A stretch of 63,942 nucleotides of DNA, the filler included, from Octopus bimaculoides (Eukaryota), in assembly GCF_001194135.2 (NCBI RefSeq). It is 5 parts of 5 records of this genome, joined end to end, with 100 filler letters (N's around TTAATTAATTAA, not from the genome) between each part and the next. Parts side by side here need not be neighbours in the genome. Positions count along the whole stretch, not along the records: positions 1 to 29,616 come from NC_068981.1; positions 29,717 to 52,060 come from NC_069003.1; positions 52,161 to 60,506 come from NC_068996.1; 2 more parts are not named here. One strand, written 5' to 3'. The notes under the pieces were generated by a model. That model searched no databases, was not told where the DNA came from, and was given only the letters and a program-made list of their open reading frames with translations. Positions 19,059 to 59,770 of this stretch are shown here, one piece after another. A program made the translations under genes and the position numbers. Within the stretch, counting starts at the first letter, position 1; the number at the start of each line of letters is the position of its first letter.

Positions 19059-19240
19059 GGGAGAATGTACGAAAAAACAACAACAGACAAGGACAGGTGG
19101 TGTAAATAACAAAAGGATGTATTAGTATGACGCTCGGGAATACGGAAAGTCTTTGACGTTTCAAGCTACGCTCTTCAACAGAAAGAATATGGAGACAAGG
19201 AGAAAAACACGGAGAAAAAAAATTCAATAGTGTTCAGTCA
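19059..19240 (-). mobile_element. Solo 3'-terminal unit of the hammerhead-bearing PLE family, embedded in (TA)n
   Basis: Aligns by eye with 31691-31870, 20065-20162 and 58766-58930; (TA)n on both sides. Confidence 0.8.
19150..19186 (-). ncRNA. Minimal type I hammerhead ribozyme, A6U core variant
   Basis: Minus strand TCTTT-CTGTTGA-A-GAGC-GTA-GCTT-GAAAC-GTC-AAAGA: perfect 5-bp stem I, 4-bp stem II, palindromic ACGT stem III, GUC triplet. Confidence 0.7.
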
Positions 19241-20064
19241 TATATATATTCTTGTCTTACTTATGTAGCTGCTATCAGGACCTGTAGGAGTGGTTTAACC
19301 AGTACTTATTTTCAAGTCTGATACTTATTTAATCAGTCTCTTTCACCAAACTGCTAAGTTATAGGGTTGTAAACAAATAAACACCAGTTGTCAAACAATG
19401 GTGGGGGACAAACACACACACACACACACACACACACACACACACACACACACACACACACACAGCTTCTTCACAGTTTCCATCTACCAGTTCACTCACA
19501 AGGTATTGATTGACCAGAGGCTATGTTAGTAGACACTTGCCCAAAATACTGCACAGTGGGTCTGAACCCAAAACCACGTGGTCATAAAGCAAGCTTGTTA
19601 ACTACACAGCCATGCCATCTTTTATATACCTTTTATATAATCCTTTAATTGTTTCAGTCATTAGACTGTGGCCATACTGGGGCACTAACTTGAAGAATTT
19701 TTAGTTGAATGAATCGACTGCAGTACTTATTTTCTTTTTAAGCCTGATACTTATTCTATCAGTGCTGTTTGCTGAACTGCTAAGTGACAGAGATGTAAAC
19801 ACACCAACACCAATTGTCAAGCAGTGGTGGGGGACAAACACAGACACAGACAGACAGACAGACACACACACTCACACGACAGGTTCCTTTCAGTTTCCAT
19901 CCACAAAATCCACTCACAAGGTTTCAGTTGGCCTGAGGTTATAGCAGAAGACACTTGCCCAAGGTACTAAGCAGTGGGACTGAACTTTGAGCCATGTGGT
20001 TGGGAAACAGATCTCTTACCACACTACCATACTTACACTTTATGTGTGTGTGTGTGTGTGTATA

Positions 20065-20162
20065 GTGAGAATTTACAAAAAACACAAAAGAAGAAGACGG
20101 GTGTGTAAACAACAAACAGAGGTATTAGTTTAATGCTCGGGAAGTGAGATAGTCTTTTACGT
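20065..20162 (-). mobile_element. Truncated 3' unit of the same PLE family, broken at the hammerhead ACGT palindrome
   Basis: Homology stops at GTCTTTTACGT, then an RTE-type 3' UTR starts. Confidence 0.7.
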
Positions 20163-20412
20163 GCCACCAGCACGAGGGCCAGTCACATGGTACCGTTGCC
20201 AGTACCGTGTAACTGGCCCTCATGCCGGTGGCACATAAAATCACCCACTACACTCTCGGAGTGGTTGGCGTTAGGAAGGACATCCAGCTGTAGAAACTCT
20301 GCCAGATCAGATTGGAGCCTGGTGCAGCCTTCTGGCTTGCCAGTTCTCAGTCAAATCGTCCAACCCATGCTAGCATGGAAAGTGGACATTAAACAATGAT
20401 GATGACGATGAT
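20161..20412 (+). mobile_element. RTE-type 3' UTR or RTE-tail SINE with (GAT)n tail
   Basis: GGAGTGGTTGGCGTTAGGAAGGACATCCAGCTGTAGAAAC...CCAACCCATGCTAGCATGGAAAGTGGACATTAAACAATGATGATGACG. Confidence 0.8.
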
Positions 20413-55860: not shown

Positions 55861-55879
55861 TTTTAACACTTGTAAAATA

Positions 55880-56784
55880 TAATTCAAATCACAACAGAGC
55901 TGGCCAATATCTACACTGGTTGATATGTCGGTATCATAAAACAAAACTCTTGACAAATGATATAAGTACCACCCCGAGGCTGTAACTGAGGGAGAAAATG
56001 TAACGATTCTTTGGGGCTTTCCAGTATATATATAGAGCCATCAAAGCTAGTAAACCAGATATTGTTGTGAAAGACCAGAACAGTAAAGTCTGTTTATTGA
56101 TTGATATAAGCATTTCTTATGATCTTGATATCTCAACAAAACAAAATATAAAGATTTGGTCATTGAAATTGAAAAATGTGGTGTGGCTGTGTTGTAAGAA
56201 GCTTGCTTCCAAACCACATGGTTCCGGGTTCAGTCGCTGCATGACATTTTGGGCAGGTGTTTTCTACTATAGCTTCGGGCCGATCAGAGCCTTGTGAATG
56301 GATTTGGTAGACGGAAACTGAAAGCCCGTCGCATATATATGTGTGTGTGTGTGTGTGTGTGTGTGTGTGTGTGTGTGTGTGTGTGTGTGTGGATGTGTGT
56401 ATGCATATGTTTGTCCCACAACCATTACTTGACAACCGATATTGGTGTGTTTACGTGCCCGTAACTTAACGGTTCGGCAAAAGAGTTTCGATAGAATAAG
56501 TACGAGGCTTACATTGAATAAGTGCTGGGGTCGATTTGTTCGACTAAAAGAGGTGCTCCAGCAAAGCCACAGTTAAATGACTGAAAGAAAGAAACAAACA
56601 GATAAAAGAATATAGGAATCTCAAGACGATTACCATACCAGTGAATGTAGGAGCACTTGCAATAATCCCAAAAGGTACTGAAAATCATTTGAGGATGATC
56701 CCTGGATTATCATCCATACAACGAGTGCAAACGATCGTTTTAACTGGTGTGTCGCACGTATTGAGAAGAGTATTGTTGCTGTGA
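55880..56784 (+). mobile_element. R4/Dong-like RLE domain fragment split by a family A SINE (56180-56612)
   Basis: YHPEAVTEGENVTILWGFPV..KASKPDIVVKDQNSKVCLLIDISI..KDLVIEIEKMW [SINE] NLKTITIPVNVGALAIIPKGTENHL..VQTIVLTGVSHVLRRVL*. Confidence 0.85.
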
Positions 56785-58765
56785 ATTTTCTTTCCTTTCC
56801 CACTCTCTTTCTTTGTTTTCTTTTTTTTTCATTGTTTTCTATTTAAAAAATTGTTTTTCTTTTCTTTCTTCCTTTTCCCCCTTTTTTTCTATCACATAAC
56901 TATGTAAATGCGCAATCTGGTGTTTTTTTTTTGTTTTTCTGTTTTTCTGTTTTTTTTTTTTTGTAATGGCTTATCAACGTATACAATGAGTTTCTTTGCC
57001 CTATGTGTCACGAAGACACTCGGCAAGAAATGGAAACAGAATTAAGAGAAGAAAAAACAACATAATAATAATGATGATGATGATGATGATGATACTACTA
57101 CTACTACTCCTACACTTACTACTGCTGCTACTACTACTACTACACCTACTACTACTACTACTACTACTACTACTACTACTACTACTACTACTACTACTAC
57201 TACTAATAATAATAATAATAATAATAATAATGATAATAATAATAATAATAATAAGAATAATAATAATAATGANNNNNNNNNNATAATAATAATAATAATA
57301 ATAATAATAATAATAATAATAATAATAATAATAATAATAATAATAATAATAATAATAATAATAATAAGAAGAAGAAGAAGAAGAAGAAGAAGAAGAAGAA
57401 GAAGAAGAAGAAAGAAAGAAAGAAGAAAACAAAATTCCAATTAGAAACTTATATAGGAGGAGAAAACGAAGAACATAAAGAAAATGGGAAATTAAAGAAA
57501 TAACATAAAATTTAACAAGGCGATGTGTNNNNNNNNNNNNNNNNNNNNNNNNNNNNNNNNNNNNNNNNNNNNNNNNNNNNNNNNNNNNNNNNNNNNNNNN
57601 NNNNNNNNNNNNNNNNNNNNNNNNNNNNNNNNNNNNNNNNNNNNNNNNNNNNNNNNNNNNNNNNNNNNNNNNNNNNNNNNNNNNNNNNNNNNNNNNNNNN
57701 NNNNNNNNNNNNNNNNNNNNNNNNNNNNNNNNNNNNNNNNNNNNNNNNNNNNNNNNNNNNNNNNNNNNNNNNNNNNNNNNNNNNNNNNNNNNNNNNNNNN
57801 NNNNNNNNNNNNNNNNNNNNNNNNNNNAGAGAGAGAGAGAGAGAGAGAGAGAATCAGTATTTGAAATGTCATGTTCACATACGTTATCGCTATTTCAGGC
57901 CACAATTTCCTTAACAAGCTATTTTTCTATTTAATATTTATTGTATTTTTTTTTCATTTTCCCTTTTTCTTTGTTTTTATCATTTATTCTGAAAACTTTA
58001 AACTTGCTGAAAGACAAACGAAAATAAATTGAAGTAACCGAAGGAAAAAGAAAAAAGAAGCCAAAAAAAACCCCCACCCTGCTGTTCAGTTGAGTAACCA
58101 TAATAAATTGGAATTGGAAGAGAAGCTTCAAATACGGTATTTCTCAAGTGGAAAGGTTTAAAGAAGATTTATATGGTATAAATGATCAGATATGTGATTA
58201 TACAGACAATATTGCGATTCGGTACTATGTAAGTGAGGAACACAGCGAGTGTTATTTCAATCAGTTAGAAACAGTTTAAATGCCAACAGTTTCAAGTACA
58301 CGCGTACGCACACACACTCGGGGGACACACACGCGCTCGCGCGCACACACACACGTCCTAACGCACACATAAATCCACTCATATATACATACAAACATGC
58401 ATGCATATAAACAAACATGCATATATTTCTATACATACATACATACATACATACATACATACATACATACATACATATATATATATAATATCTATATATA
58501 GATGAACACTCACATATCTCGCTCTCTCTCTCTCTTTACATGTATATATATATATATATATATATATATATATATGTATAAACGAAAATAGCCAGTGAGA
58601 TCCGTAAAGGTAGAGATCCAATAGTAATCCGGGTGGAGAGCTGGTATGTGGATGAGGAGAGGTGCTAAAAGGTCTAAAAGTGGTTATGATATGCAAGTCC
58701 AAGAGAGTGAGAAGTTCAGTCAGGATCAAACTGGGGTAACCAAGTGAGTGTATAACATATAGCTC

Positions 58766-59770
58766 AAATTTATAGAAAAACAAAAGACGAAGACAGGTGT
58801 AGGAACAACAAGTAAGTGTATTAGTTTGACGCACGGAAAAAATAGAAAAGTCTTTTATGTTTCGAGCCTACACTCTTCGACAGAAATGGATAAAAGGAAA
58901 TTAATGGAGAGACAATGAAAGAAAAAAAAAAATAGTGTTGAATTCAATGGTCCAACATGGCGAATGATTGCAAAAAAAAAAAGAGTTTAAATGAAAGGGA
59001 GATAATAATAAAAAGAGGTTGAATGAAGGTGAAATAATTCATGGTGATCCCAACAAGAGGAAGTGAGCAAACGTGTGTGTATGTGAGCATGGCGTGTGAG
59101 TGTGTGTATATGCATGAATAGGGGAAAGTGAGTTTGACGCGTGTGTAATAGTGTGCGGAGTGAGTGATGAGTTGAACAGTGTGTATGGGTGTGTATAGTG
59201 GTAAGTGTGGGTGAGGGTACCGAGGTGGAAGGTATGCAGGAGTGTCGGTGGGGGTTTGGGAGGTGAGTGGGAATCTGTGTTGGACTGGTGTCAAATGAAG
59301 AGAGGAGGTGAGTTGAGCCATGTGGCTCAAAGAAGGAGATTAATTCCTGTTCACGGCGAAGGTGGGCGTCCGGGTGGCCCCTGTGCAGAGATAGTCCGAA
59401 CACAGATAGATGTTGTAGCGAATGACCGGTAGAACGAAATGGCGCGAGATTGGTGTGTCATTGCCGTGTCTGATGTCCCTGTGCTCTGCGAACCGGTCAG
59501 ACAAGCGGCGTCTTGTTTGACCAATGTGCAAGGACGGACAGAGAGAGCTGGAGATGCAGTAAATGACATTACTAAAGGTACAAGTAAAGGAATTGGTAAC
59601 ATGATAGGGACGGTGATGGGTGCCTGTGAGGATGGTGGTGTTGGATAGGTAGGGACAGGTGCGACAGTGTGGGCGAAAGCTGGGGAAGGAGCCAGGCTGG
59701 GAAGCGGAGGTAGGGAAGAAACTGCGGACCAGGAAGTCACGCAGGTTATGGGCTCGTTTGAAGGAGAGAA
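58766..59770 (-). mobile_element. Second copy of the Neptune-like PLE GIY-YIG plus 3' region
   Basis: LLSFKRAHNLRDFLVRS..HIGQTRRRLSDRFAEH.RDIRHGNDTPISRHF..FGLSLHRGHPDAHLRREQELI; same layout as 31691-32927. Confidence 0.88.
58851..58888 (-). ncRNA. Minimal hammerhead ribozyme, A6U variant (stem III altered by probable CpG decay)
   Basis: CATTT-CTGTCGA-A-GAGT-GTAG-GCTC-GAAAC-ATA-AAAGA. Confidence 0.55.

Follow-up and report, generated by a model that had tools for sequence, protein, structure and literature searches.

Minimal hammerhead ribozymes of Penelope-like elements (PLEs) are described in excerpts of PMC4209133 as motifs whose monomers do not cleave and whose dimers or trimers cleave weakly. 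According to the sections of PMC11167929 on the ribozyme, a PLE hammerhead cuts in vitro, yet its catalytic mutants insert equally well; for the purified PLE protein the unprocessed RNA is the main substrate, and RNA-seq revealed no ends at the cleavage site. Naiad PLEs are successful despite having no hammerheads, and it is suggested in PMC8557442, in the part that concerns them, that hammerheads may merely parasitize PLEs. Natural hammerheads with C at position 6 in place of A keep low activity, being slow in Mg2+ and working in Mn2+ (excerpts of PMC3088659 and PMC7151607). In this report a stretch of 63,942 nucleotides from Octopus bimaculoides (GCF_001194135.2; five parts of five records joined with filler, hereafter the window) was analysed. 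It contains four homologous units which, judged by their sequence, are degraded terminal pieces of a Neptune-type Penelope-like retroelement with a high copy number, and three of them hold a minimal hammerhead with U at position 6.

All four units lie on the minus strand and are 67–80% identical in pairs, at the places where the preliminary description had put them. Unit 1 (19058..19240) is a solo PLE terminal fragment with (TA)n at its end, unit 2 (20061..20162) is a PLE fragment without a core, in which homology runs from A15.1 onward, unit 3 (31690..31870) is a terminal fragment with a TA-rich microsatellite at its end, and unit 4 (58764..58930) is a terminal fragment. The minimal hammerheads are located at 19150..19186 (unit 1, core CUGUUGA, with an ACGU palindrome), 31780..31815 (unit 3, core CUGUGGA) and 58853..58886 (unit 4, core CUGUCGA), where the palindrome is destroyed by A at 16.2. 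C3 falls at 19181, 31811 and 58883, respectively. U6 was found in all three cores, at 19178, 31808 and 58880. Position 7 is U, G and C in units 1, 3 and 4, and position 17 is C at 19155, U at 31784 and A at 58856. The pattern CUGU-N-GA-A-GAGY-loop-GCUY-GAAAC-RUH matched 3 times in the window and in none of 100 shuffles. The earlier observation of three U6 cores differing at positions 7 and 17 was confirmed, and the predicted cut of unit 1 lies between 19155 and 19154, as given there. The stem pairing noted there holds for stem II, which has 4 bp in units 1, 3 and 4 (one of them a G-U pair in unit 1); stem I, which has 5 bp in unit 1, is shorter in the others, with 2 bp in unit 3 and with 3 bp in unit 4.

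A comparison with the canonical core (C3 U4 G5 A6 N7 G8 A9 / G12 A13 A14 A15.1 U16.1) indicated that 10 of 11 positions are kept and that position 6 deviates. Because this position is U and not A, the window hammerhead was attributed to a variant and not to the canonical PLE members. A uridine at position 6 does not make the contact that a purine makes in the U-turn. Stems I and II, base 9.1, the G10.1-C11.1 pair, palindromic 15.2/16.2 and H17 are all present in unit 1 and in the family majority, and these features of a minimal type I hammerhead are partly decayed in units 3 and 4. Several differences between the copies fall on CpG sites, and those at U11.1 of unit 1 and at U10.4 and A16.2 of unit 4 look like ordinary decay. 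A relaxed core scan with stem filters over the whole window revealed no hammerhead beyond units 1, 3 and 4, a window search with a profile built from the four units gave no convincing fifth copy, and an Rfam search up to E 5 returned 114 matches, none of them to hammerhead families.

In order to compare the window copies with their family, 4 of 24 listed sequencing runs were aligned to 31700–31870 (unit 3) at 80% likeness, so that the alignments cover only copies at least 80% like unit 3. These were X1 (12,252 contigs) and X4 (13,157 contigs) from organism A, whose runs may include the source of the window, X18 (3,439 contigs; its RNA origin is a guess) from organism B, and X21 with 2,340 raw RNA reads, about 6% of the run. 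Variants are given here as 40 listed of 89 rows, by a ranking rule that is not stated. No listed row falls at 31808 (position 6), and the departures of unit 3 from the family majority (31783, 31814, 31826) appear at 98–99%. For X18, the listed rows account for every A>G (4), A>T (1) and A>C (0) place that was tallied; therefore A6, C6 and G6 each stay below 3% in organism B. A family consensus with A6 was looked for among these copies and was not found: U6 is the family majority letter in two species labels and not local decay. The earlier proposal of a variant ribozyme, either active or repurposed, accordingly stands as to the family trait, and activity or a new function stays a prediction. 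The summed depth at the core (about 2.7 million vs about 12–65 for single contigs) hints at PLE family copies in the tens of thousands, the depth ratio not being a copy number. A search of metagenome contigs for the family motif with position 6 left free gave 0 matches.

Positions 7 and 17 are the free positions of hammerheads. Among the listed rows, they are the only positions of the 36-base motif that vary at 10% or more, and this was observed in both organisms. Position 7 is distributed as G46/U36/C14/A4% in X1 and G24/U35/C12/A28% in X18. Position 17 is U or A, with A at 28% and 62% in the two organisms, while G at this position is below 3% in X1, X4 and X18 according to the A>C tallies. 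Variation at this level affects 0 of 29 constrained and 2 of 7 free positions (Fisher p 0.033, listed rows only), and two family majority letters restore a 4-bp stem I (CUUU/AAAG), longer than the 2-bp stem of unit 3. The pattern of variation supports moderately the view that the masters retained the features of a hammerhead once U6 had become fixed. Taken singly, the copies are not under strong selection, since CpG sites decay, G12 included (3.4% in X1, somewhat below the 6.6–9.7% of neighbouring CpG sites). Mere CpG decay was also considered as the source of the variation at position 7 and proved insufficient, as G7 is the commonest allele in X1 and no G8A occurs among the listed rows.

The assignment to PLEs is based on protein-coding remnants. 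A broken linker between reverse transcriptase (RT) and endonuclease (EN) with a GIY-YIG endonuclease fragment of a Neptune-type PLE lies upstream of unit 3 (32480..32930, minus strand; GIY-YIG stretch at 32587–32862), and a frameshifted RT-EN linker, a zinc-finger-like linker and a GIY-YIG fragment lie upstream of unit 4 (59335..59786, minus strand). Both are in the same sense as their unit, so that the reported position of two units downstream of a Neptune-like GIY-YIG open reading frame (ORF) is correct, with the frames present as broken fragments. The two EN fragments are 73% identical to each other and 40–46% identical to full-length RT-GIY-YIG polyproteins. Pfam run directly on both fragments did not detect GIY-YIG, and an initial protein search gave no match. 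The set of protein relatives included 2,160 representatives at E up to 0.001, of which 150 were listed and 8 were scanned for domains; these relatives carry GIY-YIG, and Pfam placed RT before GIY-YIG in five long ones. The window fragments align to residues 726–877 of P0044 (RVT_1 380–567, GIY-YIG 799–879), which puts their GIY-YIG C-terminal to a PLE reverse transcriptase, the RT itself being absent from the truncated window copies. The alignments cover the RT-EN linker, the CX4CxxC motif and the EN core, and this is the Neptune/Nematis layout given in the consulted part of PMC8557442. In the CX2-5CxxC linker, GSFPSFRPHCRTC of the window aligns with GSFPCGRPRCNTC; unit 4 has Ser in place of the first Cys, and the linker region of unit 3 is decayed with its internal CxxC intact. 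The element probably belongs to Neptune and not to Nematis, as the hammerhead of its relatives equals the published Neptune motif. Note that three of the four units have a microsatellite at the end ((TA)n or TA/CA, about 95–100 bases past the cut site), in line with a microsatellite insertion bias, and only a short remnant is left in unit 4. Taken with the core alignment, the EN fragments support the earlier link to PLEs and the minimal type I hammerhead architecture. All window copies are solo and 5'-truncated and are probably inert. The PLE fragment of unit 4 is directly preceded, at its 5' end, by one copy of an abundant repeat resembling short interspersed nuclear elements (SINEs).

Using the EN alignment, 80 of 475 confirmed metagenome stretches and 11 genome-collection loci were fetched (L001–L091). 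They represent animal-like DNA from few assemblies and so are not independent; no EN relatives were found in viral contigs. Their EN is homologous to that of the window (41–56%), and about 180 bases past the EN match they carry a hammerhead whose motif is that of the Acropora digitifera Neptune in Fig S3 of PMC4209133. With an anchor that left positions 3–9 free, 74 motifs were found in 67 of 91 loci, and 73 remained after that of L051, which was out of register, was dropped. Position 6 is A in 71, G in 2 and U in none of them, therefore A6 is likely ancestral. U6 patterns gave 0 matches in viral contigs and in all 91 related loci. Positions 7 and 17 are nearly fixed at C. Units 3 and 4 align to the related motifs without gaps; within these two lineages stem II is paired in 100% of cases, and two stem I pairs are changed on both sides (U-A vs C-G and U-A vs G-C). 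Position 4 is U in 49 of the 73 motifs, C in 23 and A in 1. The U4C core CCGACGA occurs in L081–L087 (L081:1991-2021), L042, L044, L045, L054, L063, L069 and L071, from several source assemblies, and the near-identical C4 copies in L081–L087 indicate that U4C was amplified. U-turn changes have thus spread at least twice in the Neptune clade, and the view of a core change peculiar to one lineage was not upheld: a sister Neptune family holds another amplified U-turn change, and core drift is not unique. The records L081–L091 are bacterial metagenome-assembled genomes with many copies of an animal Penelope-like element, which points to host DNA in the bins. Other canonical A6 minimal hammerheads of unrelated families were seen in the flanks of some loci (L020:-2227, L068:-2436, L083:4739, L086:1806).

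The explanation that we prefer, to which we give an even chance, is that the U6 motif is a slow, attenuated ribozyme whose cutting would require the pairing of two tandem copies via the ACGU palindrome. A6U would have arisen in a master lineage with ancestral A6 before amplification, selection on the masters would have kept the rest of the fold, and the damaged U-turn would lower the cutting rate. Such a lowered rate could be tolerated, as reverse transcription depends on an RNA that has either stayed whole or been re-joined at the cut site. In each of the three core-bearing copies the sequence continues past this site, from which it follows that their templates were uncut or re-joined.

Several results weigh against this attenuated ribozyme. 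A mutational scan, in the part of PMC9901934 that deals with the core, found low activity in all U-turn mutants except a C3-G8 swap. No tandem copies were seen in the window. Outside the 40 listed of 89 rows, X1 has one A>T and two A>G rows, so that organism A may have a minor class of copies with A6 or C6. The difference between constrained positions and flanks was not significant (0/29 vs 10/108, p 0.084; vs 8/108, p 0.14). RNA 5' ends at the predicted cut, which had been suggested as a check, were not found in X21: no place in its reads is enriched in starts or ends, although such libraries may not capture cleavage, and depth is level across the cut site. The X21 first mates are equal on both strands (971 and 959 at 31784–31789) and 1,625 of its 2,340 reads are less than 90% like unit 3, a pattern that fits read-through in host transcripts or an unstranded library. 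For the three natural copies, the modelled double-hammerhead dimer has -2.6 to -5.9 kcal/mol vs -17 to -28 kcal/mol for the best co-fold. The modelled open core is rare in monomers (0.000–0.05), and canonical A6 relatives are closed too; the folding models give no support for activity in the window copies.

Two further ideas on cleavage and folding were rejected. The 5' breakpoint of unit 2 lies inside an 8-base overlap (20162–20155) with an upstream SINE-like repeat; the overlap spans the predicted cut 20158/20157, and unit 2 could be taken as proof of cutting in vivo. Other copies of this repeat, which has an internal inverted repeat at 20155–20240 beside unit 2, end in the same letters, and microhomology therefore explains unit 2, a single and weak case, as well as a cDNA ending at cut RNA does. 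A locking of the core by U6 and C4 alike, through pairing with 15.1–16.2, was abandoned as an explanation because A6 versions also collapse into a rod via another register, the effect of U6 is mixed in direction, and C4 does not use the 15.1–16.2 register.

Three other explanations were weighed. The motif may have stopped cutting, with its fold retained in the element RNA for structure or recognition, for instance by the RT-EN protein or at the start of translation. We consider this rather unlikely, though it agrees with the unaffected insertion of hammerhead catalytic mutants and the unprocessed main substrate (PMC11167929, ribozyme sections), with the amplification of the sister family carrying U4C (23/73), with the stem pairing kept between lineages and with the lack of RNA ends at the cut site in X21; the variation at positions 7 and 17 and the avoidance of G17 fit catalysis better than a plain hairpin. 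The same variation bears on the notion of a neutral relic, in which A6U would have killed the master ribozyme and the apparent conservation would reflect little later divergence of subfamilies. Such a relic seems improbable with four alleles at position 7, two or three at position 17 and none reaching 10% at the 29 constrained positions under both species labels, but it would account for the non-significant contrast between core and flanks, for the decay of G12 in genomic copies and for the success of Naiad PLEs without hammerheads, which may merely parasitize PLEs (PMC8557442, as excerpted).

Full activity of the variant, with the lost A6 contacts offset by the dimer, by a protein or by Mn2+, appears very improbable. 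A6C hammerheads do cut well in Mn2+ (0.18–0.31 per min), but the mouse-gut A6C ribozyme is very slow in Mg2+ (both from excerpts of PMC7151607). In the C7 background, the modelled share of open cores rises from 0.004 to 0.20 with U6, but over seven comparisons the effect of U6 has no steady direction (higher in three, lower in four), and no second-site change is visible.

If U6 dimers cut, the hammerhead core consensus and the search descriptors need widening; if they do not, this argues that the PLE fold is kept for something other than cutting. Hammerheads are near-universal in canonical PLEs, yet cut poorly and were dispensable in vitro, and a massively amplified U-turn variant beside a sister family with another one offers a natural experiment on their role. 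The stronger claim, that the CUGUNGA hammerhead, which standard descriptors cannot find, would be a working natural ribozyme maintained by selection while the retroelement expanded greatly in two or more species, is unlikely in our estimate. If it is true, then together with the U4C sister it would mean that the U-turn has been weakened repeatedly in Neptune elements, or its ion preference switched, to keep the template intact, and a hidden class of non-canonical hammerheads would be abundant in animal genomes.

The window also contains other repeats. Broken ORFs at 42463–43385 (minus strand) have weak Pfam matches only and are not matched by Neptune-type proteins; we take them to resemble a second, different element with RT and a GIY-YIG-like domain, and a relaxed scan detected no hammerhead downstream of them. 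A reverse transcriptase fragment of a non-LTR (long terminal repeat) retrotransposon of the LINE (long interspersed nuclear element) type was found at 45579–46582 (minus strand; Pfam RVT_1, E 1.6e-19). The stretches 30745–31071 and 60757–61323 (minus strand) hold a fragment of a Mariner-type transposase (Transposase_1, E 3.6e-11) and a second DDE-like ORF, for which Pfam gave no match. The SINE-like repeat family is abundant, with a copy at 59770–60000 and copies in about 15 other places that are 70–89% alike and often split by (CA)n.

PLE-associated small hammerhead variants with reduced stem III and dimer cleavage were reportedly described by Lunse, Weinberg and Breaker in 2017. No PLE hammerhead family with U6 was found in the titles and abstract beginnings of the papers listed by our literature searches, and the 2017 work may include such variants. 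The core "CUGUNGA" had no literature match, and the stem II motif of the window is not in the supplement of PMC8557442. Minimal PLE hammerheads are known, and a natural family-wide U6 is a core variant that these searches did not find in print.

Like the minimal hammerheads of pseudo-LTR PLEs in PMC4209133, as far as its motifs and their description go, the window motif is of type I and has a U-rich 5' flank, a short stem I and the extra base 9.1. It also shares the G10.1-C11.1 pair, a 4-bp stem II, a 4-base loop, the ACGU palindrome and the absence of stem III, and in both cases the motif is located downstream of GIY-YIG in mostly solo truncated copies. The nearest published motif is that of the Acropora digitifera Neptune (Cervera and de la Pena 2014, PMC4209133, from the part with the motifs). 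Unlike the window family with U6, all 56 of 56 motifs in Fig S3 of that work have A6, their descriptor having required the core. The phage Bcep176 A6C hammerhead (PMC3088659, PMC7151607, in excerpts) is likewise a natural change at position 6 with the other core letters kept, but it has C instead of U and is a single assayed phage ribozyme, whereas the window motif belongs to a high-copy retroelement family. The related Neptune family (L001–L091) has a homologous EN, a hammerhead that aligns without gaps and likewise an amplified U-turn variant (U4C), but it differs in the A6 majority, in the near-fixed C at positions 7 and 17 and in the spacer between EN and motif, which is about 180 bases after the EN match there vs about 450–700 bases in the window.

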